Shown piece by piece: positions 2,367 through 38,508 of a DNA stretch of 57,997 nt. The notes under the pieces were generated by a model that was given only the letters and a program-made list of their open reading frames with translations, had not been told where the DNA came from and made no database searches. The translations under genes and the position numbers were made by a program. The stretch spans positions 62,001 to 119,997 of IMG/VR virus record IMGVR_UViG_3300040960_001631, one strand, 5' to 3'. Numbering within the stretch: position 1 is the first letter of the stretch; each line of letters opens with the position of its first letter. Source of the DNA: an uncultured virus (IMG/VR IMGVR_UViG_3300040960_001631) (Duplodnaviria > Heunggongvirae > Uroviricota > Caudoviricetes).

Positions 2367-2491
2367 TGCAGTACAGCGACCATTGTATTGCAGGGTCAGA
2401 CTGTGGTTAACCAGCAAAGAGCCGTGAGGCTGAGAATTTGGCTAGAGGGACAGGATCCCCGTATCGAGGAGAAGAGATGGCTATCGGTCGC
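2367..2491 (+). ncRNA. Candidate structured cis-regulatory 5' leader RNA
   Basis: About 53% GC over 2367..2476 by hand count in an AT-rich genome. Contains hairpin tgcagtaca/tgtattgca, helix gggtc..ctgt/acag..gatcc and GNRA hairpin agcc-GTGA-ggct. Loop gcgacc is complementary to ggtcgc at 2486..2491. Confidence 0.5.
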
Positions 2492-5400
2492 ATTAGTGGT
2501 CCGCTCTTGAAAGCTAACCTTTTGCGTGAAAACGTAAATCTGGCTTTTGAGACTGACCTATTATATTTAGATGTTCAAAACAGCCGAATCGGTATTAATA
2601 CTGATGCACCTCAATACGATCTAGACGTAAGCGGTACAACAAGAACTCCAACACTTAACGTAGATACACTAGCACAACTAGGCAATATTAGTATCTCTGG
2701 CTCAAACATTGCAACTAGTGCAAATACATTAACACTAGGCACCACATCAGGTAATAGTGTTGTATATCAAAATAAACTTGTTATTGATGATTTAGAATTA
2801 CAAAACAACGAAATTAGAACTACGACATCAAACGCTAATCTAGAATTAAATCCAAATGGCACAGGTAGTGTTGAAATATTTGGTAATACAAATGTATATG
2901 GTAACATTGTAGCAACAGGGTCTATTACTGCTGATGGTAATATTACAATAGGTGATGCTGATACTGACAACGTTGTATTTAACGCAGAAATTCAATCTGA
3001 TATTATTCCAGATGCAACAAGCACTTATTCACTAGGATCAGATCCAGCCAGCGGCGGCAAGCAATGGTCTGATGTTTGGGTAGATAATTTTTATGCCGGA
3101 ACAGTAACAACAACTTCACTTGAAGTTGATGGTGTTGATCTTGCACTACGACAAGGTAATATATATTACGTATCAGAAAATGGAGATGATACATATTCGG
3201 GTGATCACCCTAATGATACTTTTGCAACTTTAGAACATGCGTTAAGTGTTGCAGGAGACGGTGACACTATTCACATTTATCCTGGAGAATACCAAGAAGT
3301 ATTTCCTTTGACAATTCCTGAAGGAGTTACTGTTAAAGGACACAGCATACGAGGAGTTAATATTTCTCCTACAGCAGGAACAAATACAAACACAGCATTC
3401 TTACTCAATGGTCAAGTAACCGTTGAAGATTTAACAATTAAAGACTTTTATGCTCCTGGATATGCATTTGAATTTGCAAACAATTTTAATATATCGTCTC
3501 GTTCGCCATATATTAGAAATATAACTGTTATTACACAAGGATCAGTTACAAGCGGTGCAGATCCAAGAGGATTTGACGAAGGAGATGCAGGCGGAGGCGC
3601 ATACTTGGACGGAAGTATAGCAAACTCTGCATCTAGAGAAGCAGGATGCTTATTTCATAGTGTAACGTTTATTACACCAGGTGTTGATGCACTTACTATA
3701 ACAAATGGTACAAGAGTTGAATGGCTTAATTCTTTTACATATTTTGCAAATAAAGGTTTATATGCGTTAGACGGAGCAACTGGTCTAAAAGGTACAGGTA
3801 AAACAGCAGTTAGAGTTGACGGAGCAAGCGGACCATATCTAGCAGGAGAAACATTTACATATTATGACACAGATGGTACTACAGTTTTAGCAACTGGAAC
3901 TATTAGTAGTGTAGATGCTGATGGAAAATTTTATGTTTCTGGAAATTTATCAGGACTTGAAGTTGCAGCAGGGCGCGGCGGCAAAACTATATTAAGAAAT
4001 CAAAATCCTGTTACAGATACTGCTATTAAAAAGTTTGGAACAAGCAGTCTTATATTAGATGGCACTGAAGATTCTATCAGTGTTGCATCAAACAATGATT
4101 TTGGTTTTGGAACAGATGATTTTACTATTGAAGGATTTTTCTACTTTGATAGTGTAACTGGTACAAGAAGTTTAATAGACCTTAGGGCAGGCGCAGATAC
4201 AGATGTAGGTCCGTACTTAAATTTAAATGCAGGTAATCCAGAAGTTTATATTAACGGTTCGACTGTATTATCAAGTGGAACATCCTTAACTACAGCAACT
4301 TGGTATCATATTGCAGTATCACGCACCGGTACAACTATGAAACTTTTTGTAGACGGTACAGAAGAAGATAGTGCAACAGTTAGTACAGACTTAGGTTCAG
4401 CAAAACCATTAGTAGTTGGTGCAAAATGGAGCACAACTGCTGAGTACTTAGATGGTAATGTTGACGAAGTAAGAATTTCAAAAGGTGTTGGTAGATATAC
4501 AGGTGCATTTGGTGCAATTACATCAGAGTTTACAAGTGATACTTCAACAACACTTTTATTACATTTTAACACAGCAGATGATAGTTCTGAAACTATTGTA
4601 GATGATACATTAAACAGTCAAGATTTAAGATTTAGTGGCGGCGAAACTGCAACATATGTTACACTTGCTGACACACTAGACTTTGGCGGCGAAATAAGAA
4701 GTATTGCAAGTGCAAACGTATACGGTAACTACGGTGCATATGGCGACGGCAATGGTGTACTGATGTATTTGATCAGTCAAAACTTTGCATACATTGGTAA
4801 TGGTAAAGATGTTGATAACGATCCAACAACTGTTGTGCAAACACAAGAAGTTACTGAATTAAACAATGCAAAAATAAGATATAACTCTGTTGATCATAAA
4901 GGTGACTTTAGAGTTGGTGATTTATTTTATGTAAATCAAGCAGACGGCACTGTTGATTTTACTAGTTCACAATTTAATATTGACACAACTAGTGGTTTAA
5001 CAATTACTACAGGCGGCAACACTACTACAATTACTGGTACAGAAATTGATACTGGTAATTTAAGATTAAGTGGCAACACAATTAGTAGTTTGTCAGGCGA
5101 TATTAATTTAAGTAGTGACAGCGGCAATGTTAAGATTACTTCAACAGGAAGTTTACAATTACCATCGGGAAGTGTAGCAGCAAGACCAACGCCTGCAACA
5201 GGTATGATTCGTTACAACACAGACGATAATACTTTTGAAGGATATGACGGCAATTGGAGAGTATTAAGTGGTGTTTATGATTTAGATAGAGACACTTATA
5301 TTACACCAGAATTAACTCCCGGTGCAAATGATAGTACAATTAGATTTTATATTAGTGGTGCAGAAAGAGCTAGTATAACAAGTACAACATTTGAAACACC

Positions 5401-5815
5401 TAGAATAGATGTAGATGATATATACATAGACGGAAACGTTATTGGAACAACAACAGCAGACACAGATTTACAACTTACTGCTAATGGCACTGGTTCTGTT
5501 GTAATGGATAATATTGCTATTAAAGATAGCACAATTACAAACACACTAGTAGATACACCATTATTATTCCAGCAACAAGGAAATGGATATTTTAAAATAG
5601 AAGGTACTGGAGGGTTTGTTGTTCCTGTAGGTACAAGTTTACAAAGACCTGCTGCGGCTTATAGAGAAACCGGAATGATAAGGTTCAATGTCGAGCAAGG
5701 TTACTTAGAAATTTGGGATGGCACTTCTTGGGTATCTGTTGCAGGTGCTTCTGGTGCAATTACTTTTGCAGCAGCAGAAGACTTAGCTATCGAATACGTA
5801 TTAACATTAGGATAA
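2477..5815 (+). CDS. Large virion structural/fibre protein with beta-helix-like region and LamG/ConA-like lectin insert
   Basis: ATG at 2477 (MAIGRISGPLLKANL) follows SD gaggag, so it is preferred over the TTG at 2438. LamG-like segment ~4031..4570 (KFGTSSL.LDG, DFTIEGFFY, TWYHIAVSR, LFVDG, G.VDEVRISKG, LLLHFN). Confidence 0.8.
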   Translation: MAIGRISGPLLKANLLRENVNLAFETDLLYLDVQNSRIGINTDAPQYDLDVSGTTRTPTLNVDTLAQLGNISISGSNIATSANTLTLGTTSGNSVVYQNKLVIDDLELQNNEIRTTTSNANLELNPNGTGSVEIFGNTNVYGNIVATGSITADGNITIGDADTDNVVFNAEIQSDIIPDATSTYSLGSDPASGGKQWSDVWVDNFYAGTVTTTSLEVDGVDLALRQGNIYYVSENGDDTYSGDHPNDTFATLEHALSVAGDGDTIHIYPGEYQEVFPLTIPEGVTVKGHSIRGVNISPTAGTNTNTAFLLNGQVTVEDLTIKDFYAPGYAFEFANNFNISSRSPYIRNITVITQGSVTSGADPRGFDEGDAGGGAYLDGSIANSASREAGCLFHSVTFITPGVDALTITNGTRVEWLNSFTYFANKGLYALDGATGLKGTGKTAVRVDGASGPYLAGETFTYYDTDGTTVLATGTISSVDADGKFYVSGNLSGLEVAAGRGGKTILRNQNPVTDTAIKKFGTSSLILDGTEDSISVASNNDFGFGTDDFTIEGFFYFDSVTGTRSLIDLRAGADTDVGPYLNLNAGNPEVYINGSTVLSSGTSLTTATWYHIAVSRTGTTMKLFVDGTEEDSATVSTDLGSAKPLVVGAKWSTTAEYLDGNVDEVRISKGVGRYTGAFGAITSEFTSDTSTTLLLHFNTADDSSETIVDDTLNSQDLRFSGGETATYVTLADTLDFGGEIRSIASANVYGNYGAYGDGNGVLMYLISQNFAYIGNGKDVDNDPTTVVQTQEVTELNNAKIRYNSVDHKGDFRVGDLFYVNQADGTVDFTSSQFNIDTTSGLTITTGGNTTTITGTEIDTGNLRLSGNTISSLSGDINLSSDSGNVKITSTGSLQLPSGSVAARPTPATGMIRYNTDDNTFEGYDGNWRVLSGVYDLDRDTYITPELTPGANDSTIRFYISGAERASITSTTFETPRIDVDDIYIDGNVIGTTTADTDLQLTANGTGSVVMDNIAIKDSTITNTLVDTPLLFQQQGNGYFKIEGTGGFVVPVGTSLQRPAAAYRETGMIRFNVEQGYLEIWDGTSWVSVAGASGAITFAAAEDLAIEYVLTLG

Positions 5816-9500: not shown

Positions 9501-10887
9501 TTTCGAAGTTCGTTTAACAGTTCCGGACACAGATACAGTACCAGGGGGCACCAGTTATCTAACTGTTAACGGAAATGCTCAAAGTGGTACTACTGGAGGG
9601 ACAGTTCAAATATCTAATACTGACGAGAACGAATTTTCTAATTATGAAGGTATGAGACTAATTATTACTTCAGGTGCAGGTGCAGGACAATACGGGTATA
9701 TAACTGCTTATAACACTGAAACAAAATTTATTACTATTGCAAAGGAATCTGATGATTCACAAGGTTGGGACACTTATGGAACAGCTTCAATTGTTGCACC
9801 AGACACTACTAGCAAATATGTAATTGAACCTAGAGTAGTTGTAAGTTCAGGCACAGCACATCTACGAGTAGGCGTAGCATCGGGTAGATTATCTGGATTT
9901 AGGATAGTCAATCCTGGATCGGGGTATAGTGTAATTAGCCCACCAACCGTAACAATTACTGATCCAAATGTAACTTCTACAGGAACATGGGAAGTACGAG
10001 TAGGCGACGGAGTACTAGCACAGCCTACTTTTTCAGATAGGGGCTCAGGTTATATTATTGCACGAGCTACGGTAAGCGGTGTAGGATATGCTGACAGCTA
10101 TCAATCAGGAAAATATCTATATGTTTCTAATCTTACATTAGAGCCTGGACCAGGCGCAAACGTACAAATTGACGGTAATGACGAGATCTTTCGACTAGTA
10201 AAGGTCGAACAAATTACAGGTACAGCACCAAACATAAGTGCAAGATTATGGGTATCTCCAGCTGTTGAACTATTTGAGTCCCCAGAAGATAATGTAGGAA
10301 TTACTATAAGAGAAAATTACAGTCAAGTTAGATTGACAGGTCATGATTTCTTAGATATTGGACTAGGAAGTTTTGAAGATACAAATTATCCGTTTACTGT
10401 AGGAAGAGAAATATCACAAGAAAATGAAGTTTTAGAAAACGGTGGTGGAAGAGTCTTTTACACATCAACTGACCAAGATGGCAATTTTAGAGTTGGAGAA
10501 TTGTTTAAAGTCGAACAGGCTACAGGTATTGTTACACTAAATGCAGAATCATTTGATCTAGGTGGACTAACTGAATTAAGATTAGGCGGAGTTATATTAG
10601 GTGGTACAGGTGCAGTAGTAAGAGAATTTAGTACGGATTCTACGTTTAGTGCAAACTCAAATAACATTGTTCCAACACAACGAGCAATTGCTACATTTAT
10701 TCAGAGTAGGATTGGCGGTGGCGGCGCAGATGTAAACGTAAACCAAATATCCATGGGACAAATTACCATAAGTGGTGCAGATATTAGTGCAAGTGTTCCT
10801 GAAATAGAATTTACTTCGAAACCAATATTCAAAGACGGAACATTAGATCAAGCAACAATAGCGTATGCAATGGCAACAAAGCGTTAA
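6547..10887 (+). CDS. Large modular virion/fibre protein with CBM5/12-like repeats
   Basis: Many W-x4-Y-x2-(G/N)D-x-V-x-Y-x-G-x2-Y repeats typical of CBM5/12 (ChtBD3-like) modules. Core is shared with 10926..16409 (VGDELRST, MFY.RNG.GLRNCTLQGL, SPYVQNV, RVF.TSTDQDGNFRVG). Confidence 0.8.
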   Translation: MAEFKIGRLRFNWKGEWTPSTDYIKDDVVRYGGNSFVIKETHTSSTNFYDDYGSDPTDLKVTVARNTGDTADVFYINGREKTSINLRQGRTYIFNQDDASNVSGGASAMPLFISDTDDGTNNDGIRYSGRVTYYIDRVAVTEDAYISSFSGASRREVRITIDEFTPASLFYFANGTASAGAGISTASKAKLELMLEGKTFYSDWTVNTGYKEGDIVVYNANVYVCIQSHSSAATETLGLEADQQNWKKIVQSNNWIGSWTGGTRYIVNDIITYGPTVYRCTTAHTASTNFTDDSANWEIVLQESSYRNDWITSRLYRVNEVVKFGGTLWKSNAQHLSTTFQNDLSNWDVYIDGLEFDNAWSASAYYQIGDVVRYGGYSYRAVRNNVNIIPLNNTDDWQSVYESYLFSQDWSSEAAYAIGTLVRYKGYLYEAVNDSTGFEPPDPSYWKVIIPGREWTGLWVAETDYKLGDLATYGSNTYECILAHTSTAGNDRPDNDYGINDTYWKMYVEGDVNNVMTEQGDIVTYQSGNVRLGRGGEDSALRVANSGTELEWDLFGNTQDIYYVSPNGIDEIDQGTTPNSAFKTIKYALEYISNNRNVETKLDLSKDVIAYAILKKGALESFTTAPNLGAILDETNPNTGFAYGDVTGNGSINSSDAQGYLQWYNYHISGISSDAPSEGVRAACEDLYNRLSASRADIIDETFEWSGDNYDLVTTSIKEATLFVKTGLYKEILPLRVPELTAVVGDELRSTVITPASSYESTDMFYLRNGAGLRNCTLQGLNDVLSDASEYLTRRPSNDVKFVSLDPGAGPTDETVWITSRSPYVQNVSVFGTGVTGLKVDGNLHNGGNDSIVANDFTQVISDGIGMWITNQGRAELVSVFTYYCHIGYLAEAGGKIRGTNGNNSYGDYGSVSEGVAVSETPITGVVDNYYQDAQIPTVFTNGNEILHVEYSNAGVNYNTSASYTLTGSGTNAAVSSSNVVDGGIFEVRLTVPDTDTVPGGTSYLTVNGNAQSGTTGGTVQISNTDENEFSNYEGMRLIITSGAGAGQYGYITAYNTETKFITIAKESDDSQGWDTYGTASIVAPDTTSKYVIEPRVVVSSGTAHLRVGVASGRLSGFRIVNPGSGYSVISPPTVTITDPNVTSTGTWEVRVGDGVLAQPTFSDRGSGYIIARATVSGVGYADSYQSGKYLYVSNLTLEPGPGANVQIDGNDEIFRLVKVEQITGTAPNISARLWVSPAVELFESPEDNVGITIRENYSQVRLTGHDFLDIGLGSFEDTNYPFTVGREISQENEVLENGGGRVFYTSTDQDGNFRVGELFKVEQATGIVTLNAESFDLGGLTELRLGGVILGGTGAVVREFSTDSTFSANSNNIVPTQRAIATFIQSRIGGGGADVNVNQISMGQITISGADISASVPEIEFTSKPIFKDGTLDQATIAYAMATKR

Positions 10888-10891
10888 TTAG

Positions 10892-10898
10892 ATAAATA
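10892..10898 (+). promoter_or_regulatory. T4-like late promoter (ATAAATA)
   Basis: Intergenic, followed by SD ggag and ATG 10926; same 19-mer context as 2348..2366. Confidence 0.7.
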
Positions 10899-10925
10899 TT
10901 ATTAAGATATATACTGGAGTATAAA

Positions 10926-13900
10926 ATGGCAGAGTTTAAGTTAGGTAGAATTAAGTTTGTTTGGAAAAACGAATGGGATTCCAGTACCACATACTACGTT
11001 GATGATGTAGTACGCCACGGCGGCAAAACTTATATATGTGTTGAAGGACACACATCAAATACAAATTTCTACACAGATCTAACAGCAGTTAAATGGAATT
11101 TAATTGCAGACGGTCAAGAATGGAAAGGTGACTGGACTGGGTCTACGTATTACAAGGTTGGAGACATAGTAAAGTGGGGCAGTTTAGTATACATATGTAT
11201 TACAGGTCACACTTCTCAAACTTATTTAGAAGACGATCAAGCAAAATGGAATACATTTGCTACAACATCGTTTGATTGGAAAAGTGCTTGGACAGGTTCT
11301 ACCTATTACAAACTTGGTGACGTTGTAAAATACGGCGGTACCATATATAGAGCAAACTCTAGCCATACTTCACAAACACTTTTAGAAGACGACCAAGCAA
11401 GTTGGGACGTTGTAATACAAAGTTTTGAATATAAATCTACTTGGACTGCTTCTACTTATTACAAAATAAATGATATTGTAAAATATGGCGGCGGACTTTG
11501 GATTTGTACAACTGCACATACTTCAACAACAACATTGGCCGTAGACGAAGCAAATTGGGCTCAATTCGTTGAAGGGTTGGAATTTGAAGATAGCTGGGAT
11601 CAAGATACAAGATATCAACCTGGAGATATTGTAACTTTTGGCGGTTACCAGTATGTTTCTAAAACTAATAACTTAAATGCAAAACCAACCGCAAGTGCTT
11701 CAGATTGGGACTTATTTTCAACAGGATTTAATTTTGTAGGTGAGTGGGGAGACGACTCTACAAATCAAGATTACCGTGTAGGCGATGTTGTAACTGTAGG
11801 AGGATACACGTATTTGTGCATTCAAGAACACGAAGGTGCAGCACAAAAACCAGGAGATACTGCAAATTATGCAAACTGGTCAAACTATTGGGAAAGATTA
11901 AATCCAGGGGTTATTTGGAAAGGCACCTGGACAGATGCAACTGTTTATGTTCTAGGAGATGCAGTAAAATACGGTGATAATAGTTATGTTGCTGTAACAA
12001 CACACACCTCAGACGAAACTATTACTCAAAATAGACCAGATCAAGATACAGACGGGTCAGAATGGAATTTATTAGCAGCCGGTGCTTCGTCATCTACACT
12101 TACTACAGACGGCGATTTAGTATATTATGGCGGCGCAGGTCCAACAAGATTACCTATCGGAAACGAAGGAGATGTGCTTGTTATTAAAAACAACAACTTG
12201 ACATGGGATCGTTGGGGAGACTTAAACAACGTTTATTATGTTGCGCCAGACGGAGAAGATGAAATAAGCTACGGATATACTCCAGATAGACCATTTAAAA
12301 CTGTACGTTATGCTACTGAACAAATACAAAAAGGTATAGTACGTCCTAATGCTTCTCGACTAATTGAAGTTAACAAAGCATTCATAATGGAAGAAACTGC
12401 TGAATGGGTAGCAGCACAGATTGTTGCAGGCACTGGCATTTGGAGCGGATTTACAAATGACGACGAATACTTAACTAATATCGAATTTGGTAAAGTTATA
12501 GATGCAATTCTATACGATATTAATCACGGCGGCAATGAAAAGACTAGAACAAAAACTTTATCGTATTTTGAAAGCAGTGCATTAGTTGCAGACATGGCAG
12601 ACGAAAATGATCAGTTTGTTGCAGCACTAGAATACATGGAAACAGTGATAGATGCTGTTATTAGTAATCTAGCACCAGCAGCAACATATAGTTCATTTAC
12701 ACAAACAACAGATACTAATTATGTTGAAGAAACAGATGCACAATCAACTATAGAAAATTTAATTGATATTATTACAGATGCACTTACAGTAGAAACTGAT
12801 AGTAATGTACCGACAAAAATTGAACCACAAAATTCACTTATGGTCAAGACAGGTATATACAAAGAAGTTCTTCCAATAATTGTACCAAAAAATACAGCAG
12901 TAATAGGAGATGAACTACGTTCTACTAGAATCGAACCAGCAGGAGCACTAGTTAGTATTACAGATACACCATATTCGTTAGCAGGTATACTTAATTTAGA
13001 AAGTAATTTAAATGCTCTACTGTCTGGAGATAATGATGGTGATCCATTATCAGACGGTCTTAGTTCGTTCTCTGCAGAAAGTGTTGACTCTACATTAACT
13101 GTTGCGGATTCTACAGTTGCATTAGAAGCAGCAGAACTTGCTAGACAAATACACGATTACATTGACTTCGGCGTAAATGGTGCAACTGGCGACTCAACTA
13201 CACCGATAATAACAGGCAGCAATACAGAAAATACTACAATTGAATACACATATGCAGTAGAAATTATAGAAAAAAATAGAACTTACCTTGTAGAAGAAGT
13301 TATAGGTTATATTGCTGCTACATACCCTTCATATACATATAATGCAGCTAAGTGTCGTAGAGATGTAAACAGATATATAGATGCAATTAAACATGACCTA
13401 ATTTATACAGGTAACTATAAATCATTATTAGCAGCACGATACTATGTAAATGCTGTAAACAATTCTTTACAAGAAGACATGTTCTATATGAGAAATGGAA
13501 CAGGTCTACGTAATTGTACACTACAAGGTTTGACCGGCACATTAGGTAGTGCAAATTCATACGGCACAAAGCGTCCAAGTGCAGGAGCATTTACTAGTTT
13601 AGATCCAGGTTGGGGTCCAGCGCACCAAGATGCATGGATTTCAAACAAATCTCCTTATGTACAAAATGTTACAAACTTTGGTACTGCTTGTGTCGGTTTA
13701 AAAGTAGACGGAGATTTACATAATGGCGGCAACGACTCTATCGTTGCAAACGATTATACACAAATTATATCAGATGGTATAGGCTGCTGGGTAACAAACC
13801 TAGGACGTTCAGAACTTGTTTCTGTGTTCTCATACTACGGACACATTGGATACCTAGCAGAAAATGGTGGTAAGATTCGTGCTACAAACGGTAACTCATC

Positions 13901-20510: not shown

Positions 20511-20542
20511 AAATGTAGAGTAAAGTTTTTTACTCTACATTT
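20511..20542. terminator. Long hairpin at convergent junction, probable bidirectional terminator
   Basis: Perfect 14-bp stem aaatgtagagtaaa-gttt-tttactctacattt with A/T-rich flanks between convergent genes. Confidence 0.6.
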
Positions 20543-21138
20543 ATTTTACAATTCTTATAAATTTTATTTAAAGTATAAAAGTCATCAATCTTTTGATTGC
20601 AAGCAATTTCCATATTTATTGCTATTCTATTAAATTGACTGTTGTGTGGTAAAGGTTCATGGGGCATCCATGAGGGCATAATAACCAAATCTAATTCTTC
20701 TGGTATAAAAACTTGATCTAAGTGATCTTTTGTAATAACTCGCAATCCACAACTATTTTCCATTTTGTCAATCGGTACTTGTAAATAAAAAACACTGTTT
20801 ATACTACTTGTTCTAAGATGATGATGTAGATTACTTCTATAAGTATTTTTATTATAAACATTTGCCCAACAAATTGTTCTGTTGTATATAGAAATGTCTA
20901 AATTTTCGAATACAGTATTACATATATGTTTAAAAGTATTATATAGTATAGAAAATTCTTGATCAGATTCTTCTACTACAAAAGTATATCCTCCATTATA
21001 ATCGCCTGTTTCTATTTGAGATTCAACAGTTGCAATCATTTGCTGTTGTAAAGAGTGATCGATAGATAATGTTGTATATAAAAAATAAGGATTATTAATA
21101 TTATAATTAATACCGTTATTTTTGTAAAAATTTTCCAT
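20530..21138 (-). CDS. 2OG-Fe(II) oxygenase, TIGR02466-like
   Basis: WANVY...H-x-H (LHHH)...SVFYL...PSWMPH...RIAINM motifs of the double-stranded beta-helix oxygenase fold. Confidence 0.75.
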   Translation of the reverse strand: MENFYKNNGINYNINNPYFLYTTLSIDHSLQQQMIATVESQIETGDYNGGYTFVVEESDQEFSILYNTFKHICNTVFENLDISIYNRTICWANVYNKNTYRSNLHHHLRTSSINSVFYLQVPIDKMENSCGLRVITKDHLDQVFIPEELDLVIMPSWMPHEPLPHNSQFNRIAINMEIACNQKIDDFYTLNKIYKNCKINVE

Positions 21139-21778
21139 CTGGATCAGGTATTCCTGTTGTAATAATGTTAAAACTTATTATAATTCTGTCTTCGTCAATT
21201 TGGTTAGGCAATGTTTCGTGCTTCATATAACTAGGCCACAACAACAACATACCGTCTGTTGGTTCTACAGTATGCATAGCATTGCCTCTATATAGAGTTT
21301 GTTCTGGCTCGTTTGATAGTGCATATTCTTTTGGATCAGTAAAAATTATATTTCCGCAATTTTTGTGTGTTTTCACGTAGTAAACTCCACTCCAATGACA
21401 CGGACGATGATCGTGCAAAGGTACCCATGCACCTTTAGGATAAACAGCAGCCCATGCATTTAAAAAATACCATTGTTGGCGATAGTGTAACTGACTAAAA
21501 AACTCATTCACTAATGGAGACAAATGATCAAAGAAAAAATTAAATCTATCGTCACCCACAAGTCCGTTATTATCCAACGGGTCAAAATTTGAATAACCCA
21601 ATTCTTCTCTTTGAGTTGAAAACTTATATTCATTCCATTTATGGCTAAGAACTCTCCGATTTACGCCCGAGTCAAACAGCTCTGTTATTTCTTTAATTAA
21701 TTTTTTATTTAAACTATCATAGTTGTCTACTGTTGCTTCTAAAGTAGGAACAGGAAAAAGTTGTCTTATAACTTTCAT
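21116..21778 (-). CDS. 2OG-Fe(II) oxygenase, TIGR02466-like
   Basis: LFPVP start; W....KG....HDH...WSGVYYV...G.I.F.DP...LLLWPSYMKH.T.PN....RIIISFN. Confidence 0.85.
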   Translation of the reverse strand: MKVIRQLFPVPTLEATVDNYDSLNKKLIKEITELFDSGVNRRVLSHKWNEYKFSTQREELGYSNFDPLDNNGLVGDDRFNFFFDHLSPLVNEFFSQLHYRQQWYFLNAWAAVYPKGAWVPLHDHRPCHWSGVYYVKTHKNCGNIIFTDPKEYALSNEPEQTLYRGNAMHTVEPTDGMLLLWPSYMKHETLPNQIDEDRIIISFNIITTGIPDPDGKFLQK

Positions 21779-21780
21779 TT

Positions 21781-22296
21781 TTATCTCCAGCTAGGGCCTA
21801 AACAAAACCCGAAAATTACGTATCTTGTGCCTGATGTTACTGTACTAACACTATGTGGAATAAAAGAAGGAAATACAACAATATCGCCGGTGCCAATATT
21901 TAAATTAACGCCCGACATGGATATTTCTCCGCCTTCATAGTCGTTATTTAATAATAAAGAAAATGACAGTTTTCTCTGCATATCGTTTTCGTCTACTAGA
22001 GGTCTAGAATCTATATGTTCTTTATTATAATGATGAAATGTTTCATACTTACCAAAGTATGCTTCTATCTTTGTAGATAAATCAAAATTAAAAAAATAAT
22101 TATTTGCTTCAAAAACTGCATTAATTATTTCCTTATGATTGTTTAAATTTACACTTGTAATTTTTACTTTTCGGTAAGTCGAATCAGTTCCTTGATTAAT
22201 TTCTTCTAAACGCTTGTCATCATATAATTTAATAATTTCATTGCATTCTGATGTTGTACATAAGTTAACACTTTTATAAGTAAATTGATTAAACAA
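21781..22296 (-). CDS. 2OG-Fe(II) oxygenase, prolyl-4-hydroxylase/PKHD-type
   Basis: HID...RKLSFSLLLNNDYEGGE...VFPSFIPH.V..VT.GTRY; TTG start preceded by SD aagga. Confidence 0.85.
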   Translation of the reverse strand: MFNQFTYKSVNLCTTSECNEIIKLYDDKRLEEINQGTDSTYRKVKITSVNLNNHKEIINAVFEANNYFFNFDLSTKIEAYFGKYETFHHYNKEHIDSRPLVDENDMQRKLSFSLLLNNDYEGGEISMSGVNLNIGTGDIVVFPSFIPHSVSTVTSGTRYVIFGFCLGPSWR

Positions 22297-23356: not shown

Positions 23357-25054
23357 ATGTGGTTACTAGCCATTAATACAGGTCACAACGGATCTTCCGC
23401 TTTATTTAAAGATAACGAACTTGTCTATTATGTAGAAGAAGATAGACTAAGTCGCTTAAAGTATGACGGAAATCCTTATCTTGGAATGGAAAAAGCATAC
23501 GAATACACAGATCATATAGATTACTTATTACTGTGCGGAACAAGAAATGCCTTTGGAAAAATGCCTTGGACAGGTGAAGATCCTTATACTTGTTATATAA
23601 GGAAAAAACAACCAGGTATAAAGTTTGAAACAAAGATGTTTGGCGATGATCATCATTTAACACACGCGGCTACCGGATTTTACAATTCTGGATTTGACGA
23701 AGCAGCAATTGTAGTAGTAGACGGCGCAGGCAGTGGTTTTGACTTTCCAGAAATTCCCTCGCTAATGCAAGAAACTTGGGAAGTTGAATCGATTTATTCA
23801 ATGAGATATCCAGCAGAACTTGAATGTCATGTAAAATATTATGGAGCAAACTTTAACGATAGTTTCCATTTAACAGATAACAATACGTATGTAGAAATTT
23901 CTGACAGACACGGCTTAACAAAAGTATATGAAGCTGTAACGCAATTTTTAGGATTTCATGCAATTGAAGCTGGAAAAACTATGGGACTTGCTCCGTATGG
24001 AAAATTCAACGAAAGCATAAAATTAAACAACGGACAGTATACTAATAGAAATTTTGTTAAACCTAAGTTTCCTGCATCTAATTTTATAATTGCAGACTTA
24101 GATGACGAATTATTAGAAATGCAAGGCGACGATGCATGGCATAAAGATGAAACTAAAGTAGGAGATTATCGTAAAGATCTTGCTTATATGGTGCAGCAAA
24201 CTTCTGAAGAACGTTTAAAGCTATTAATACAAAAAGCAATAGATATTACAGGATTAACAAAAATAGTAATTTCGGGAGGCTTTGGACTAAACTGTGTTGC
24301 TAATTATGCAATGCTTGAGGAATTTCCTGATATTGATTTTTACCATGAACCAATTGCACACGATGGCGGAAATGCTATAGGTGCATGTCAGTATGTGTAC
24401 AGATCATTATCTGAAAATAAAGAAAAGACTCCCTTAAAAAGTTTATATTTAGGTCCTAAAAATGATAACAGATACAATGATATAGATTTTGCAGGTTTTG
24501 AAGTAATTGATTCTACAACAGAAGAAGTTGCTAAATTAATTGCAGATAAAAATATTGTTTGCATGTATCAAGGACGTTCTGAAGCAGGTCCTAGAGCTCT
24601 TGGTAACAGAAGCATACTTTTTGATCCTACTGTTAAAAATGGTAAAGATATTGTTAATGAAGTTAAGCGTAGAGAATGGTTCCGTCCATTTGCTGGGACA
24701 GTACTAGCCGAAAAAGCAAGTGAATGGTTTGATTTAAGAACTAAAAAAGAAACACCATTTATGATGTATGCTGTAAATGTAGTTGACAATAAACAAGATA
24801 TTATTCCTGCAATTACCCATGTCGATGGTACATGTCGTATTCAAACTGTAACAGAAAAACAGAATAAAAATTATTACAATTTGATCAAAGAGTTTGAAAA
24901 AATTAAAGATGTTCCTATACTCTTTAACACAAGTTTTAATTTAGGCGGAGATCCTCTTGTAGAAACAGTAGAAGAAGCATTGAGTACTTTAAAAAAGTCG
25001 GACTTGAAATATTTGTGGTTACCAGAAATTAACAAACTTGTTATAAAGGATTAA
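23357..25054 (+). CDS. O-carbamoyltransferase, NodU/CmcH/TobZ family
   Basis: H..S.AL...EEDRLSR.K, HHLTHA, VVDGAG, GKTMGLAPYG, SGGFGLNCVAN, DGGNAIGA, GRSEAGPRALGNRSIL.DP, VKRREWFRPFA, HVDGTCRIQTV, NTSFNLGG.PLV. Confidence 0.95.
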   Translation: MWLLAINTGHNGSSALFKDNELVYYVEEDRLSRLKYDGNPYLGMEKAYEYTDHIDYLLLCGTRNAFGKMPWTGEDPYTCYIRKKQPGIKFETKMFGDDHHLTHAATGFYNSGFDEAAIVVVDGAGSGFDFPEIPSLMQETWEVESIYSMRYPAELECHVKYYGANFNDSFHLTDNNTYVEISDRHGLTKVYEAVTQFLGFHAIEAGKTMGLAPYGKFNESIKLNNGQYTNRNFVKPKFPASNFIIADLDDELLEMQGDDAWHKDETKVGDYRKDLAYMVQQTSEERLKLLIQKAIDITGLTKIVISGGFGLNCVANYAMLEEFPDIDFYHEPIAHDGGNAIGACQYVYRSLSENKEKTPLKSLYLGPKNDNRYNDIDFAGFEVIDSTTEEVAKLIADKNIVCMYQGRSEAGPRALGNRSILFDPTVKNGKDIVNEVKRREWFRPFAGTVLAEKASEWFDLRTKKETPFMMYAVNVVDNKQDIIPAITHVDGTCRIQTVTEKQNKNYYNLIKEFEKIKDVPILFNTSFNLGGDPLVETVEEALSTLKKSDLKYLWLPEINKLVIKD

Positions 25055-34900: not shown

Positions 34901-35100
34901 CTATCTTTTCATTCATTGCAAATCCAGGAGAACGTGCAACAGTTGACTTTAGTGAATTAAAAGAGTTAACAAATACTCCATTAGGTGGCAGAGGTACATA
35001 TCCAAATGGCCCTGATGTACTTGCTATTAATTTGTATAAAGTTAGTGGCACACCAATTGATGCAAACGTAATTCTTAAATGGGGTGAAGCACAAGCTTAA
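28966..35100 (+). CDS. Very large (2044 aa) virion structural protein
   Basis: Long ORF with motifs seen in T4-like aquatic phage structural proteins (DADFEYGLQPTKW, RQSKKYIRYQSGKG, SGIFDDQNG.FWEYDG, YSWYGAG, MRSGNLPVRYE, W.E C-terminus) and internal G..Y..G..F.I.G repeats. Confidence 0.8.
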   Translation: MAKTQIQDYIFHPGLGANDNLYPNAYSLVESNKLFIQKEATAWIQSQIDAAEPDFIGYTYNSAKCERDIGYNIDAYLADLRYGGNENTYNVVKYYWDQDVAQIDGNRAVEVATYGFIKDLIQIYILPNASYTPINLEVTQTIDVSKTAESGTSSILGTLIDATADVIETGLSEFPTFEESGQGFIKMQGKHDIANILLITNATDSKIIFNFSSIDTGGNVELISTTDSDFVTFKQTVDYVSKLYLNYDTSSMSSTDSLTIFVENTENGDSVVTTRPYNFGTDAIERNRVAPPLSMLDADFEYGLQPTKWAAIGTLRGYPSIYEIPGTDTPVLSVTTNASSVNTYIFTVTNNGTSDWVLTGEDRNGTITSVNDPAIYIVEGDTLQFVNNSSGSHPFYIKTAAGTGTGNQVDGVIDQGGQTGTVIEWTPPTGSAGTYYYQSSNDVNMVGEIIVQTNTEGAGSGQSLITVTTLGAHGFEPGTPITIKALEDSVTGASRAEGSFVIYNVPDTNQLTYFAKAQVGDTNGEVLSTTYTQLRQAGFYTGAEVGNPIFTVVTNGSGGNIFTELTTPSGSTNIPYDGPAPAVAAPVSGTGIDPGTQVTGTIDQSDGGGVYLTPVVVGDYTSGAQTITVFDSTGIIDDLATDNGSGTATYVESVAGNDISFTTAFTSAIIGNRTTYNNVSGDNIVGTGTNAEFTISKADGIYTIDSIDAAGSDYIIGDRFLISGTDLSGITPDNDLLITVQTVDADGGIATVTSSGEAFDGSYVTESISPDVEGGDGVDAVFDVAYSSNTFSTVTLNTSLITSSGYIEGDRLKISGAILSPVGVDGTNDLIIDVLTVDAGTGEILTFNFSGTAPNAENTYVAATYTSTTIAGTGAVFDVTKTGTVYSAVETSGATADYVIGETFTVSGSDVGGSPSTNDVTITIDNVDGSGAITAFSVSGVASNSDSLTLQGGANLVGTGAEFEIEQFADSTSYDVLLLNGGSDYAANQEFIILGTTFFGEDTTNDLTITIDSVDASGSITSFSIAGTSTDGTSTHAGLTPALDSVEGAGATFNVLRADSGYTTTVASGGSGYKAGNSLTISAADLGGVDPDHNLTIRIDTVSGGAISTFTQVYTSAYEGDIFDLISTVQISEPTTAEIPAATNIPYTALATLEAEFDNAHGLVPGDTFIVTISSDSGTNQHEIASGSFFASDVPTSNTLRWQARSAGFIDDDGDITGAVYPRPDSFFIHRPYDGGVQLGTGGPQHGAQAIRQSKKYIRYQSGKGIMYTTGALFAPSYDLRSVTASDVEVGALITVETDDNDHGVQEGGIIRLLGIETPGYNSGDETAVPPRFDYEVVNVIDERTFQIRAQRRLGATTAVLGFAAQMTVVSWHGATVRSGIFDDQNGIFWEYDGTNLSVVQRTGTKQVAGTIAMDVDDNLITGTNTRFRDQLVAGDRVIIKGMTHVVSHVISQTEMTVTPDWRGVVNITGTKMLLINDKKVKQEDFNLDRLDGTGPSGYNLDTGKMQMIGIQYSWYGAGFIDFMLRGSDGNFIFCHRMRNSNVNTEAFMRSGNLPVRYEVTNEGPPGKLAAAMTDSQDTISLVDSTFFPDSGVVYIDNEIISFTGNNKTTNTLTGCTRADTLRNFQAGAQRQYTAGAAATHDDRTGVILISCTITPLISHWGSAFLTDGGFDEDRGYIFSYAETGLEVSTTPATAFMIRLSPSVSNALVGDLGERELLNRAQLLLQSLEVTSDTGTGGIVVEGVLNPQNYPTNPSFVDWSTLSSQAQGGQPSFAQIASSGAITWSTDTASTVVNPQTATFPSASVTLDPYPYDNLSLDNGWDRIYILKTTWDANYTDIRENDKISGTGIASGTEVDGIRTNQWIDGQRYTVITMSKDATQNVSGQTTVTFTREYRTSSTSVIYFDKTSWDTSGVVAGTTTTDSNFAANTQVSGVSLDSYLGTQYYEVKFSNSYNATINPGTTTVEFTFIEPVYALPGETIFSFIANPGERATVDFSELKELTNTPLGGRGTYPNGPDVLAINLYKVSGTPIDANVILKWGEAQA

Positions 35101-35714
35101 TGTGCTTCTAACCAATCTACAAAGGCAGCTAAGTTATCAAAAATCTTAGTTGCCTTTTTTATTTTTTGGTAAGTAAATCTTTTAGAGATAAGTTCTTCAG
35201 TTTCAATGCCATAACCTGTACGGACTAGTATAGGCTTTGCTCCTACTTTCATTGCTGCTTTTAGATCACTAATTTTGTCACCTATAAAAAATCCTTTAGA
35301 AAACTTAATTGTAGGATTTTCTCGTTCACATCTTTTAAACATACCTGTATTAGGTTTTGCAAATTCGTCATCTTTACGACTGCTTGCACTATAATAAATT
35401 GCATCGATACTAGGACATCCTGCTTCCCCTAACATTTCAAACATACGAAAGTGTACACTTTCTACATCTTCCATAGTCATAATACCTTTTTCAATGCCGC
35501 CTTGATTTGTTATAATAGCAATTTTATGACCTAATGCTCGCAATCTTGCCATTGCTTCTAAACTGCCAGGTATAGGTTCAAAATCATTAGGATCTGTTAC
35601 ATATGTTCCTAAGTCTTTATTAATCACACCGTCTCTATCAATCCCTATTACACACTTTGTATAATTTTCTGTAGGTAAAAGTTGTGGAGTTTGATTGATA
35701 TATCTATTAACCAT
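35097..35714 (-). CDS. gmhB: D-glycero-D-manno-heptose-1,7-bisphosphate 7-phosphatase
   Basis: HAD IIIA motifs DRDGVIN, ITNQGGI, KPNTGMF, IGDKISDLKAA and LVRTGYG; in an operon with hldE and hldD. It lacks the C-x-H...C-x-C zinc loop. Confidence 0.85.
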   Translation of the reverse strand: MVNRYINQTPQLLPTENYTKCVIGIDRDGVINKDLGTYVTDPNDFEPIPGSLEAMARLRALGHKIAIITNQGGIEKGIMTMEDVESVHFRMFEMLGEAGCPSIDAIYYSASSRKDDEFAKPNTGMFKRCERENPTIKFSKGFFIGDKISDLKAAMKVGAKPILVRTGYGIETEELISKRFTYQKIKKATKIFDNLAAFVDWLEAH

Positions 35715-36093
35715 TTTGACTATCGCCTGGCGAAACTCTGTAATTGTCTTCTACTGAATCTGGTGTACTAACTTCAGTAATACTTGAACCTGCTTCTAGA
35801 CAAACAAGTTGATGCGGTTGTAGTGGAGGATTATGCCAAACATCTCCTTCTTTAAGTTCTTTTTCATACATTGTAGCATCTTTTGTATCAATCCATTTGA
35901 CCATAAATTTGCCATTATTAACAAACCAAGATTCGTCTTTTTCTTTATGAAAATGCATACTAAACTTAGCTCCTGGGCGTTCAAACACCATTATTTTACC
36001 ACAGTATTTGTCGTTAGTAGCCCAAATTAATTCATATCCCCATCCTTTTTTTACAAAACCTTCTAGTCTTGTAGATTGATCAGTTTGCTGCAT
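35707..36093 (-). CDS. Cupin, mannose-6-phosphate isomerase-like
   Basis: KGWG.E, S.HFH..K.E.W.V..G, P....H.L and EVST cupin motifs; overlaps both neighbours. Confidence 0.75.
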   Translation of the reverse strand: MQQTDQSTRLEGFVKKGWGYELIWATNDKYCGKIMVFERPGAKFSMHFHKEKDESWFVNNGKFMVKWIDTKDATMYEKELKEGDVWHNPPLQPHQLVCLEAGSSITEVSTPDSVEDNYRVSPGDSQNG

Positions 36094-36910
36094 TTATATA
36101 ATCCTCTATATTAGTCCATTGCATGTCTATAGTATTGTTTAGTTTTGTTAGATCGGCACAAGTAAATTCTTGGTATTGTCCTTTTAAATTTTCTGGCATA
36201 TCAATAAGACTAATTGCTGCATTATATTTGTTTGAAATACAATCTGCAACTGTGTAAAAACTTACAGCACGACCTGTACCTACATTCCAAATACCTGACT
36301 CTTTTACGTCAAACATTTTTTCGTGTACACGACATATATCTTCAACACAAACAAAGTCTCTTAGATAATTTTCTGAATTTCTAAATAGTTCAATATAACC
36401 TTTTTCTTTTGCTTGACTTGTAAATTTAGTAAATGGACTAGCCATACTACCTTTTTGTTCTTCGTTGTATTGTCCATAAACATTAAAATAACGGAATCCT
36501 TGTATTGTAATATCAAATTCATCTTTGTATTGATTTACAAATCTGTCAAACAAATATTTTGACCAAGCATACGGAGATTGTGGTAGTAAAGGGCCATCTT
36601 CTCTAAAGTGTGTAGGCTTATATCCACCATATACACTTGCACTGCTAGCATATTGAAAGTTAACACCAAAGTGCCCACAAGCTTGTAAAAGTCGTGTACT
36701 CATTTCAAGATTTTGTTCTAGTATAAGATCTACATTTGTTTCTGTAGTAGAACTATTTGCACCTAAGTGTACAACCCAGTCATAACCTTCAGGATCGGGA
36801 ATAGCATTAGGAACATAATCCCAACCTTCTACTTCGTGTCCTTGCGACTGTAAATATTGTGCAACATTTGCGCCTATAAATCCTTTGTATCCTGTTACTA
36901 ATATTTTCAT
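36080..36910 (-). CDS. hldD: ADP-L-glycero-D-manno-heptose 6-epimerase (extended SDR)
   Basis: ILVTG.KGFIGANV, HLGA.SSTTE, YASSASVYG, P.SPYAWSK, GFRYFNVYG..E..KGSMAS, RDFV.VED, NVGTG, YQEFTCADLTKL. Confidence 0.9.
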   Translation of the reverse strand: MKILVTGYKGFIGANVAQYLQSQGHEVEGWDYVPNAIPDPEGYDWVVHLGANSSTTETNVDLILEQNLEMSTRLLQACGHFGVNFQYASSASVYGGYKPTHFREDGPLLPQSPYAWSKYLFDRFVNQYKDEFDITIQGFRYFNVYGQYNEEQKGSMASPFTKFTSQAKEKGYIELFRNSENYLRDFVCVEDICRVHEKMFDVKESGIWNVGTGRAVSFYTVADCISNKYNAAISLIDMPENLKGQYQEFTCADLTKLNNTIDMQWTNIEDYINAAN

Positions 36911-38046
36911 TTATTTTTCTCTATAATACTTGTTGTGCTAAATCCCTCTACAGTAGGAATAATTTTTACAGGCACAATGTCATGCCCAACTACTTGTTCT
37001 ACAGTGTAATCTCCACCTTTAACGATCATATCAGGGTTTAGTTTTTTAATTAATTCGTATGGTGTATCTTCATCAAACACAACAACTTCGTCTACCCAAG
37101 ACAATATTTCTAATTGTTCTTTGCGTGTTTGTTCTGTGTTTATAGGACGACTGTCTCCTTTAAGGCGTTTTGTACTAGCATCACTGTTAATACCTACTAC
37201 TAATTTTTCACCTAGTTCATGTGCCTGTTTTAGAAGTGTTAGATGTCCTCTATGCAATATGTCAAATACACCATTTGTAAATATTGTGCGATATTGTAAG
37301 TCTTCAGGCTTAACCACATATGTGCCAGTGTGTTTGACTGATTCTGTTGCACCTTTAACTGCTAGTTTAAGACAGTCTTCATAGTTTTTACCTTGGCTCA
37401 TACCGTAAACAAACGTAGCAAGAAAACAATCACCTGCACCTGTAACATCATTTACTTCTACAGGATCTGTTTCTATAGTATAATATTCGCTGTCTATTTG
37501 TGCTATAGTAGGATCACTAGCAGCAGTAATAATTATATTACCAGTCCAATTTGTAAAACCTAATTCTTCAAACTCTTTGCGATTAGGTTTTACTAACCAA
37601 GCGCCGTCATAACAACTAAAATGACGTTTTGGGTCAACAATAATTTTACAATCATACTTGTTGATATGTTCTATAATTTGTTGTGAATATTCTAGTACAC
37701 CTTTGTTGTAATCGCTTAGTATTACAACATCATAAGCTGAAAAATCTTTTTTGTAAATTTCATTAAGTGCAGTAGTGCCGTCTGTTTTGTAATCTTGATC
37801 TATACGTGTAACATAATGCCCATCGCACAACACACGAGTTTTAACACACTTAGGCGATGATAAATCTAACATTTCTACATCGACTTGCAAATTCATTAGA
37901 TTAAGGTATACAAGGTATGCACCGCCCCATTGTTCCCAACTGTCTTGTTGACTAACAACAGGCACTGGAGCCTCAGGACTCAACCGTGTTGATGTTCCTG
38001 TAATATATTTGTCAATGATAATGTCGCCAATAACTAAGACTTTCAT
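36907..38046 (-). CDS. hldE: Bifunctional heptose-7-phosphate kinase / heptose-1-phosphate nucleotidyltransferase
   Basis: PfkB kinase motifs (GDIIIDKY..G...RLSPEAPVPV, SDYNKG, VDPK, KPNRKE, DVTGAGD) fused to nucleotidyltransferase motifs (FTNGVFDILHRGH, VGINSD.S.KRLKG..RPIN, VKGGDY, GFSTT). Confidence 0.92.
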   Translation of the reverse strand: MKVLVIGDIIIDKYITGTSTRLSPEAPVPVVSQQDSWEQWGGAYLVYLNLMNLQVDVEMLDLSSPKCVKTRVLCDGHYVTRIDQDYKTDGTTALNEIYKKDFSAYDVVILSDYNKGVLEYSQQIIEHINKYDCKIIVDPKRHFSCYDGAWLVKPNRKEFEELGFTNWTGNIIITAASDPTIAQIDSEYYTIETDPVEVNDVTGAGDCFLATFVYGMSQGKNYEDCLKLAVKGATESVKHTGTYVVKPEDLQYRTIFTNGVFDILHRGHLTLLKQAHELGEKLVVGINSDASTKRLKGDSRPINTEQTRKEQLEILSWVDEVVVFDEDTPYELIKKLNPDMIVKGGDYTVEQVVGHDIVPVKIIPTVEGFSTTSIIEKNK

Positions 38047-38052
38047 AAGTTT

Positions 38053-38081
38053 ATTATACTTTATTTTGAATTAAGTGTCAA
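38053..38081 (-). promoter_or_regulatory. Consensus sigma70 (early/middle) promoter of the heptose operon
   Basis: The minus strand reads TTGACA (38081..38076), 17 nt, TATAAT (38058..38053), 6 nt, then the hldE ATG. Confidence 0.8.
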
Positions 38082-38508
38082 GTAAATTAATAGTTTGAAA
38101 CACAGTTTCTAACTTGTTTAGATTAACTTTGCTTTGAAGTGTGTTGCGTAAACCGTGATGTAAAGGTTTTGGCCATTTAGTAAATGAACACCAGGCATAA
38201 CCGTCATGTTCGTTGTTTAACTTAGGTATAAACTCTGTTTCGACAATGCATAGATATGTATGAAAATAAAAAAGATTGTCAGATGAGATAAAACTTTCTA
38301 AAGGGAGTGTTTTTTTAATATCAGGAAGAAACCCTATCTCTTCCTCAATTTCTCTACGTAACCCTTCCCATGGAGTTTCGGTCCCTTCATTGGTTCCGCC
38401 TACAAGTCCCCATAAATTGGCACGTTTGCCTTGTGTTCTATGTAGAAATAAAAATCTGTTTGTATCTAGTGTATAAAAAAGTGCACCACTACATGTAATC
38501 TTGCTCAT
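38071..38508 (-). CDS. NUDIX hydrolase
   Basis: Nudix box GGTNEGTETPWEGLRREIEEEIG plus LN.EH..YAW. Confidence 0.9.
   Translation of the reverse strand: MSKITCSGALFYTLDTNRFLFLHRTQGKRANLWGLVGGTNEGTETPWEGLRREIEEEIGFLPDIKKTLPLESFISSDNLFYFHTYLCIVETEFIPKLNNEHDGYAWCSFTKWPKPLHHGLRNTLQSKVNLNKLETVFQTINLLDT

Follow-up and report, generated by a model that had tools for sequence, protein, structure and literature searches.

A conserved pseudoknotted leader RNA, a candidate translational operator of a gp7-like baseplate-wedge gene in uncultured aquatic jumbo phages

In a 57,997-nt stretch of DNA (the window; positions 62,001–119,997 of the uncultured-virus record IMGVR_UViG_3300040960_001631 in IMG/VR), positions 2365–2510 comprise the 5′ leader of a gp7-like baseplate-wedge gene, together with its first 11 codons, in an uncultured jumbo phage. 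The leader is one copy of an RNA family that shares a set of covarying helices, a long-range pairing between the loop of its 5′ hairpin and the coding sequence (CDS), a constraint on synonymous codons at the start of the gene, and an exclusive association with this one gene family. As a member of this widespread family, the leader probably acts in cis as a translational operator on the initiation region of the wedge gene. An earlier note, made from the letters of the window alone, had drawn attention to this region as the structured leader of a fibre gene. The features on which the analysis is built are listed below; A1–A6 denote alignments of family copies.

2353–2359, + strand: late-promoter-like box ATAAATA in the context TAGATAAATATTATTAA; [AC]TAAATA is kept in A1–A4
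2367–2376 with 2383–2392, + strand: P1, the 5′-terminal hairpin, with loop CGACCA at 2377–2382; predicted from covariation
2393–2401, + strand: linker; its GGGTCAG part is variable and the final (A)AAC is conserved (A2–A5)
2402–2404, + strand: P2 5′ strand TGT, pairing with GCA (T2402-A2416, G2403-C2415, T2404-G2414)
2405–2406, + strand: pseudoknot loop 1, GG in 154 of 159 copies
2407–2413, + strand: P3 5′ strand, TTAACC plus A2413, pairing with 2440–2445 and T2438
2414–2416, + strand: P2 3′ strand GCA, from pair counts across 159 copies
2417–2437, + strand: pseudoknot loop 3, made up of AAG, the optional P4 and GAGAAT
2420–2423 with 2428–2431, + strand: P4, a GNRA hairpin with loop GTGA; 3 of 4 pairs change on both sides (A5)
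2438–2445, + strand: P3 3′ strand, made up of T2438, bulged T2439 and GGCTAG (2440–2445)
2447–2459, + strand: P5 hairpin GGGA-CAGGA-TCCC, from the pairing in type-A and type-B copies
2467–2471, + strand: Shine-Dalgarno (SD) sequence AGGAG; GGAG is conserved in the alignments
2477–5815, + strand: gp7-like baseplate wedge gene, 1112 aa, ATG at 2477–2479
2485–2491, + strand: P1-loop partner C-GGT-CGC, from the third base of codon 3 through codon 5, pairing with the loop at 2376–2382
2498–2508, + strand: frozen codons 8–11, GGT CCG CTC TT, from synonymous-site bias

The product of the downstream gene matched PHROG 13163 in a profile search at E = 3e-202, together with three more wedge PHROGs, and its residues 208–300 are ~40% identical to cyanophage gp7. 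Together with the position of the gene in a tail/baseplate module, this profile match places it among the T4 gp7-like baseplate wedge subunits instead of the fibre proteins to which it had initially been ascribed. Laminin_G_3 is its sole Pfam domain. Of the 159 family copies parsed for the start codon, 145 begin with ATG and 14 with GTG. The distance from the ATAAATA box to the ATG is 124 nt, compared to 11–49 nt at the other box-bearing late genes of the window, and the GC content rises to 0.53 in 2401–2500 from ~0.30–0.40 in the surroundings, which bears out the initial description of an unusually long and GC-rich leader behind a late promoter.

The leader was present in 13 of 13 relatives found via the protein, and its conservation exceeded that of the flanking CDS. 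Scans of IMG/VR with three separate patterns (the P5 core, the CDS and the P2/P3 core) gave at least about 120 matches each. In all, 173 distinct copies of the family were parsed, consisting of 107 type-A copies (P5 = GGGA-CAGGA-TCCC, the type found in the window) and 66 type-B copies (P5 = CCGTG-AAA-CACGG). All share the same order of box, hairpin, pseudoknot, hairpin, SD and a gene starting MA[IV]GRISGPLLK; pattern matches outside the family were chance hits within GC-rich coding DNA. When genes were collected by the CDS pattern alone, 95 of 96 carried the full leader (92 by the strict motif expression and 3 by eye). A covariance model (R1) built from 55 type-A copies recovered 93 of 93 and 80 of 80 family loci at 44–190 bits. 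The model found a single copy in the window and in the whole record, at 185.6 bits, and one strong copy per phage record in all six records searched (the source record and five others of 155–358 kb). The leader thus accompanies a single gene family only. In one copy, L151 (IMGVR_UViG_3300021598_000058), the 5′ half of the leader is missing (P1, P2 and the P3 5′ strand), and P4, the P3 3′ strand, P5 and the constrained codons are retained; this loss may represent a recent deletion or an assembly artefact.

The family matched no Rfam entry. Rfam 15 gave no match at gathering thresholds across the whole window. At E up to 10, the region 2250–2650 matched only the irrelevant sR16 (2563–2606), whose 12 bits fall short of its gathering score of 70, and eight diverse family members gave no match at E up to 1; the initial statement that no known family fits therefore holds for the window and for these eight members. 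A blastn search of 2200–2700 against cultured phages gave no match, and tblastn of the N-terminus found it absent from cultured phages, the best hits having 36–44% identity at E of 1e-3 to 0.3. A search of one genome each of 185,579 prokaryote species returned two hits, L372 and L373, both in one metagenome-assembled genome (MAG) of Candidatus Neomarinimicrobiota (PBPT01000016.1, 335 kb, and PBPT01000082.1, 153 kb). These are probably jumbo-phage contigs binned with the MAG, and they could hint at a host. The leader ranks with the most strongly conserved non-coding DNA in this clade of uncultured jumbo phages from aquatic sources.

Covariation supported each of the main helices. In the model-fitted alignment A5 (n=93), P1 has 86.7% of its cells paired and shows two-sided changes at 7 of 7 modelled pairs; the sequence and length of P1 vary freely with the pairing kept, and the loop motif G[AG]C[CT] occurs in 133 of 169 hairpins parsed by minimum free energy (MFE). 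The P1 hairpin of the earlier note is thus supported. P3 reaches 96.2% paired cells, with two-sided changes at 5 of 6 pairs; the copy in the window carries an A2410-C2442 mismatch. An unbiased mutual-information ranking put P3 and P1 pairs on top (among them 2408-2444, 2413-2438, 2410-2442 and 2412-2440), and pair 2413-2438, newly added by this ranking, is canonical in 97%. P2 was followed by pair counts: among 159 copies, 2402-2416 is TA in 144, CG in 8, AT in 4 and a CA mismatch in 3 (UA 89 and CG 4 of 93 in the tool count for A5), and 2404-2414 is TG in 147, TA in 7 and CG in 5. These per-helix counts over 159 copies exclude 14 type-B copies in which the wrong P5 strand was picked. P2 (3 bp) and P3 (6 bp, a bulge and 1 bp) are together predicted to form an H-type pseudoknot with a 2-nt loop 1 and no loop 2. 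The near-universal G-U pairs T2404-G2414 and T2407-G2445 make the fold strand-specific.

P4, which corresponds to the GNRA hairpin AGCC-GTGA-GGCT (2420–2431) proposed at the outset, is present in 94 of 159 parsed copies, the others having a 9-nt loop, AUGUAAGGU. P5 is fully paired in 107 of 107 type-A copies, where GC-to-CG swaps at positions 2 and 3 (4 and 5 copies, respectively) are always compensated, and in type B it is replaced at the same site by a different 13-nt hairpin (52 parsed). P5 ends 17 nt before the start codon in 98 of 159 copies, and this spacing ranges from 13 to 20 nt overall. Directly before P2, CAAAC or TAAAC is found in 101 of 159 copies. For all helices together, the MAFFT alignment of 55 type-A copies showed 82.1% of cells paired compared to 29–47% for slid partners, and 22 pairs changed on both sides compared to 11.4 in shuffles that ignore phylogeny, a value reached by 0 of 500 shuffles. 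The corresponding figures in A5, which was fitted to the nested helices and leaves P2 and the loop–CDS pairs outside the model, were 89.2% against 31–45%, with the double changes again reached by 0 of 500 shuffles. Homologs of the kind that the earlier note had proposed to collect, compared by these counts with shuffles and slid partners, thus favour a conserved fold, the loop–CDS pairing included.

The pseudoknot P2/P3 and P5 had been missed initially, and a bulged helix (gggtc+ctgt / acag+gatcc) had been drawn in their place. The complementarity for this helix is present in the window and is not conserved: GGGTC is part of the variable linker, CTGT belongs to P2 with GCA 2414–2416, ACAG lies in the P5 loop, and GATCC overlaps the 3′ strand of P5, whose sequence is wholly replaced in type B. 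Two further candidates were rejected. A fourth P2 pair, G2405-N2413, is GC in only 75 of 159 copies, and 2413 covaries with 2438 instead; a helix of AGGGAC (2445–2450) with GUCC-g-CU of codons 8–10 lacks its partner in type B and clashes with P3 and P5. Alignment A6 (mostly type B), in which P5 was placed inconsistently, does not enter the pair counts. The linker GGGTC (2393–2397) holds the same GGTC as codon 4, both in the window and in many type-A copies, and could either vie with that codon for the P1 loop or give rise to another hairpin, the latter being chosen by RNAfold in L011, L063, L086 and L217; this GGTC could serve as a switch element, though it is not universal.

The contact that encloses the initiation region is made by the P1 loop. 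Its sequence GCGACC (2376–2381) is exactly complementary to GGTCGC (2486–2491, codons 4–5), with a predicted duplex energy of −12.6 kcal/mol. Across the alignments, 81.9–83.8% of loop–CDS cells are paired and three pairs change on both sides. Simple statistics have little purchase here because the core GACC:GGUC is nearly fixed across the family; even so, cognate loop–CDS runs had a mean of 5.11 compared to 4.90 for non-cognate ones, and 0 of 2000 permutations reached the cognate value. The variants are more telling. The GACC loop is retained in 0 of the 8 copies without GGTC at codons 4–5; L049 re-creates the pairing with loop GTCC and CDS GGAC; in L317, L320, L336 and L354 the loop TTGG[TC]C pairs with GGCCAA at codons 2–3; L032 and L062 have a shifted pairing, ACCTA:TAGGT; and in L328 and L352 the two partners have disappeared jointly. 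This covariation and the re-creation in rare variants uphold the proposal of a P1-loop pairing with codons 4–5 that encloses the SD and the ATG, and they point to a long-range contact of the pseudoknot or kissing type.

A second, more local constraint is seen in the codons themselves. Among 119 copies from scans that left the CDS unfixed, Gly4 is GGT in 111 of 119, Gly8 is GGT in 100 of 119, Pro9 is CCG in 96 of 109 and Leu10 is CTC in 88 of 114, compared to a background in the other genes of the window of 13% CCG among Pro codons and 1% CTC among Leu codons; the remaining Gly and Leu columns of the wedge gene vary freely. The CUCUU formed by codons 9–11 complements both the SD AGGAG and the spacer AAGAG, and type-B copies have GGAGAGC or GGAGCG, which forms 6–7 bp with (C)GCUCU(U); the duplex energies range from −6 to −13 kcal/mol. 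A pairing of the SD with codons 9–11 is a plausible model of this bias.

The adjacent upstream gene offers a comparison. It is a paralog with the same N-terminal motif, GRI[SG]G..L..NL.R, and its own ATAAATA box. In the three genomes viewed (3/3), its leader extends only 6–20 nt after the box and its codons are ordinary and AT-rich, with AGA/CGA, CCT/GGA/GGC and TTA/ATG/GTA instead of CGN CCG CTC (for example, GGT AGA ATA TCT GGT CCT TTA TTA). The paralog thus serves as a natural control for RNA-level constraint on the CDS. The sites compared were as follows.

L377:3310–3420, + strand: paralog in the source record, ~160 nt before window base 1
L375:196–281, − strand: paralog
L376:195–270, − strand: paralog

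A wedge-like open reading frame (ORF) upstream of the leader stops at 2317. A second patch of synonymous bias lies further into the wedge gene at 2540–2560 (codons +19 to +23 after Gly4, GC[TC] TTT GAG AC. GAC), where Glu is GAG in 141 of 158 copies compared to 9% GAG in the genes of the window, and where GAC-CT often re-creates GACC downstream.

The energetics of the initiation region were consistent with a closed site. Its opening energy is 10.4 kcal/mol compared to a median of 6.3, which ranks it 4th of 41 genes in the window, and this value excludes the pseudoknot contacts and the −12.6 kcal/mol loop–CDS duplex. Four metatranscriptome runs contain the region as contigs. The contigs of two of the studies (X13 and X21) both start at 2380, in the P1 loop, and extend into the gene, one of them spanning 2380–2695 with 2 differences. 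In all four RNA runs 2100–2363, including the end of the upstream gene, is uncovered, such gaps in cover being no evidence; four metagenome runs (recorded as ‘DNA?’) contain all sampled words of 2250–2650. The shared start weakly suggests a transcript 5′ end somewhere between the box and 2380; the end of a contig does not establish that of a transcript, and DNA may be present in an RNA library.

T4-type late promoters take an ATAAATA-like form, which is also named in the available portion of PMC3014915. Boxes of the form nATAAATA, the form counted in the window, lie 11–49 nt before many + strand genes and yield a late-promoter consensus for the phage clade; the 17-mer TAGATAAATATTATTAA recurs exactly within 10886–10926, ahead of the gene at 10926, and the exact TATAAATA has 3 occurrences in the window, fewer than the 10.3 of shuffles. 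A terminator scan found none in 2200–2600.

The operator reading brings these observations together. Transcription from the ATAAATA box would start just before P1, and the leader would fold into P1, the compact H-type pseudoknot (P2/P3, with the optional P4 in loop 3) and the adjacent P5, which would be held at a fixed ~17 nt from the start codon. The P1 loop would hold codons 3–5, and codons 9–11 could hold the SD. Because of these two contacts, the SD and the AUG would lie within a closed, knotted fold that would throttle or gate 30S binding. The many invariant unpaired bases of the pseudoknot, needless for a simple occluding hairpin, suggest that a trans-acting factor reads or stabilises the closed state. 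A protein is favoured as this effector because the element accompanies one gene only; it may be a regulator that the phage encodes or the wedge protein itself before assembly, and synthesis of the wedge initiator would be matched to need. Of the earlier proposal of an unrecognised translational regulator, the conserved strand-specific RNA, the lack of an Rfam family and the enclosed SD and AUG are now observed, and the regulatory effect itself is what we infer. We suggest only tentatively an assembly-coupled feedback loop, in which unassembled wedge initiator, or a dedicated phage factor, would bind the invariant pseudoknot/P5 core and lock the P1-loop/codon-4 and SD/codon-10 contacts, so that production of the protein nucleating baseplate wedges would stop once there is too much of it; as an alternative, a phage-only riboswitch class would make virion assembly depend on a small-molecule signal. 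If such feedback is true, the leader would be an autogenous RNA operator of a kind not known so far for any tail or baseplate protein, and would represent a new and widespread phage-specific class of regulatory RNA in uncultured jumbo phages.

Several results weigh against this operator reading. Repression of initiation is deduced from the geometry of the fold only, no effector candidate was identified, and the wedge protein has no known RNA-binding domain, Laminin_G_3 being its only Pfam domain. L328 and L352 have lost both partners of the loop–CDS pairing, with CCGCUCUU, and L294 and L055 lack P1 and keep the pseudoknot and P5; these losses indicate that the family can dispense with the closing contacts. 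The pairing of AGGAG with CUCUU given by RNAalifold is weak, at −1.66, and covariation of the SD with codons 9–11 was not significant (cognate −8.12 compared to −8.00 kcal/mol non-cognate, reached in 132 of 2000 permutations). The single-sequence MFE of 2350–2510 is −41.1 kcal/mol compared to −41.2 in shuffles (z = 0.02); this value is uninformative, as expected for a pseudoknot, and since it is not above chance the support for the structure is comparative. The comparative figures in turn come from related sequences in pattern-ascertained samples, a relatedness to which the shuffle controls are blind, and the fitting of A5 and the limits of the RNA contigs given above count on the same side.

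The strongest competitor to a regulated operator is a constitutive element without an effector, in which P1 shields the late mRNA from 5′-end-dependent decay and the rest sets a low constant rate of initiation or guards the GGAG from nucleases. We regard it as rather unlikely. It would suit the start of P1 at 1–2 nt past the start site expected from the box position, an initiation region more closed than most in the window, the existence of copies without P1 or closing contacts, and the modest demand for a wedge initiator, which in T4 is needed in few copies per virion. However, a stabiliser or a weak ribosome-binding site needs no H-type pseudoknot with invariant loops, no fixed 17-nt spacing of P5 and no frozen codons, and the paralog and other late genes manage with leaders of 11–49 nt. 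A riboswitch for a small molecule or ion, in which the H-type pseudoknot with its 3-bp P2, conserved loops and A-rich loop 3 would be the aptamer and the ligand would open or close the initiation region, is unlikely. Invariant unpaired bases beside a small pseudoknot, an optional loop hairpin and a nearby SD-sequestering platform are usual riboswitch anatomy, and P2/P3 with its invariant loops is a conserved, covarying structured core of the aptamer kind; in this respect the leader may be riboswitch-like, as initially described. Small pseudoknot riboswitches contain short ligand-dependent helices, which the 3-bp P2 resembles, and preQ1-I, preQ1-II and SAM-II/SAM-V, all small H-type pseudoknots with conserved loops near the SD, are like the P2/P3 core in size, topology, short helix, conserved loops and SD proximity. 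In contrast to these, the leader matches no riboswitch model in Rfam even at E up to 10, its SD lies outside the aptamer-like core, it is spread among phages only, and no ligand can be proposed for it. Its association with one gene family, encoding a virion protein without a metabolic link, instead of several families sharing a metabolite or pathway, speaks against the sensing of a metabolite.

Two further explanations were weighed, both far less probable. A self-cleaving ribozyme or a processing site in the 5′ untranslated region would be in keeping with the presence in phage DNA of a compact pseudoknotted core that is highly conserved and with the shared start of two RNA contigs at base 2380 in the P1 loop, yet a contig end near the transcript 5′ end is expected regardless. 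No Rfam ribozyme family matched, cleavage between P1 and the CDS would part the partners of a covarying pairing, and one RNA contig is continuous over 2380–2695, an interval that takes in the pseudoknot, P5 and the initiation region (contigs cannot exclude cleavage), so we consider this reading highly improbable. Conservation for a reason other than RNA, such as an N-terminal extension, a small ORF or a DNA site, is scarcely credible. With TTG 2438 taken as a start, there is an ORF in frame with the gene, and a 40-aa ORF spans 2388–2510; however, indels between P5 and the start fall into all three length classes modulo 3 (103, 33 and 23 of 159), hairpin lengths vary, the helices stay paired through double changes, and the G-U pairs render the fold strand-specific.

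Among known systems, the topology of the leader is nearest to the enclosing pseudoknots of rpsO and the alpha operon and, in the phage context, to T4 gene 32, and it is a member of none of these. The operators of E. coli rpsO (S15) and of the alpha operon (S4) are pseudoknots that enclose the SD and the start codon and are bound by cellular ribosomal proteins. In them, as in the leader, the loop of an upstream hairpin pairs with bases just downstream of the start codon, placing the SD and the AUG inside the pseudoknot; in the leader this topology, formed by 2376–2382 with 2485–2491, is conserved and re-created in variants. The leader differs in lying on a phage late mRNA and in having an extra, independent H-type pseudoknot and a hairpin between the pairing partners; it gave no Rfam hit to the S15 or Alpha_RBS leaders, and its context is a phage virion gene. 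Structured leaders that gate translation are known for T4 genes 32, 43, 25 and 38, and we know of none for a baseplate-wedge initiator and of none that combines a 5′ hairpin kissing the CDS with an H-type pseudoknot and a hairpin.

The gene 32 leader of T4, T2 and RB69, an H-type pseudoknot ~67 nt upstream of the start that is bound by gp32 (PMC3014915, available portion, which also mentions rpsO), shares with the leader its T4-type phage mRNA context, a two-helix H-type pseudoknot tens of nt upstream of the initiation region and the association with one gene only. P2/P3 at 2402–2445 lies 32–75 nt before the ATG, and translational control, the purpose of the gene 32 structure according to the same portion of PMC3014915, is likewise proposed here. 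In contrast to gene 32, the leader has P5 and a 7-nt linker in place of an unstructured A/U-rich tract for cooperative binding, its 5′ hairpin also pairs into the CDS, its product is a baseplate protein without known nucleic-acid binding, and there is no similarity of sequence or model. The hairpins of T4 gene 25 (baseplate) and gene 38 are likewise RNA structures at the initiation regions of T4-type late virion genes, and they are conserved among relatives and affect initiation (PMC3014915, available portion). They are single hairpins between a split SD and AUG that shorten the spacing and enhance initiation, whereas the leader, with an SD-AUG spacing of normal length, has a structure that encloses the site and does not bridge it.

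The leader may already be listed, unnamed, in a 2023 catalogue. In the available portion of that paper, Fremin et al. (PMC10690425) describe 8,495 unnamed candidate RNAs drawn from intergenic regions of IMG/VR, among which DNAVirus_1536 and DNAVirus_4451 (84 and 87 nt; 353 and 174 sequences, respectively; aquatic/marine Caudovirales) lie within 25 bp upstream of Laminin_G_3 genes and are flagged as possible terminators. These two and the leader, compared by description only, both precede Laminin_G_3 genes in aquatic phages. The term ‘baseplate’ was absent from the main text of PMC10690425 in a term search of the portion available, and full-text literature searches returned no account of a baseplate gene with a structured leader. 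With its ~150 nt and its natural compensatory variants, the leader is a compact system suited to the study of long-range pseudoknot control of initiation; it shows that RNA structure can impose rare codons on the first part of a phage gene, and, if an effector exists, it would show how these phages balance the stoichiometry of virion parts.

The window as a whole is AT-rich phage DNA with a T4-like tail/baseplate module of wedge, fibre, sheath, tube and terminase genes, and the source record of 119,997 nt is estimated to be 34% complete. The nearest relative of the large terminase is that of the Pseudomonas jumbo phage PA5oct, at 55% identity. Auxiliary genes stand amid the structural module at 20530–22296 (− strand), 23357–25054 (+ strand) and 35097–38508 (− strand), with ORFs resembling three 2OG-Fe(II) oxygenases, a Nol carbamoyltransferase, a cysteine dioxygenase, a nucleotide-sugar epimerase, a heptose kinase/adenylyltransferase and a NUDIX protein.

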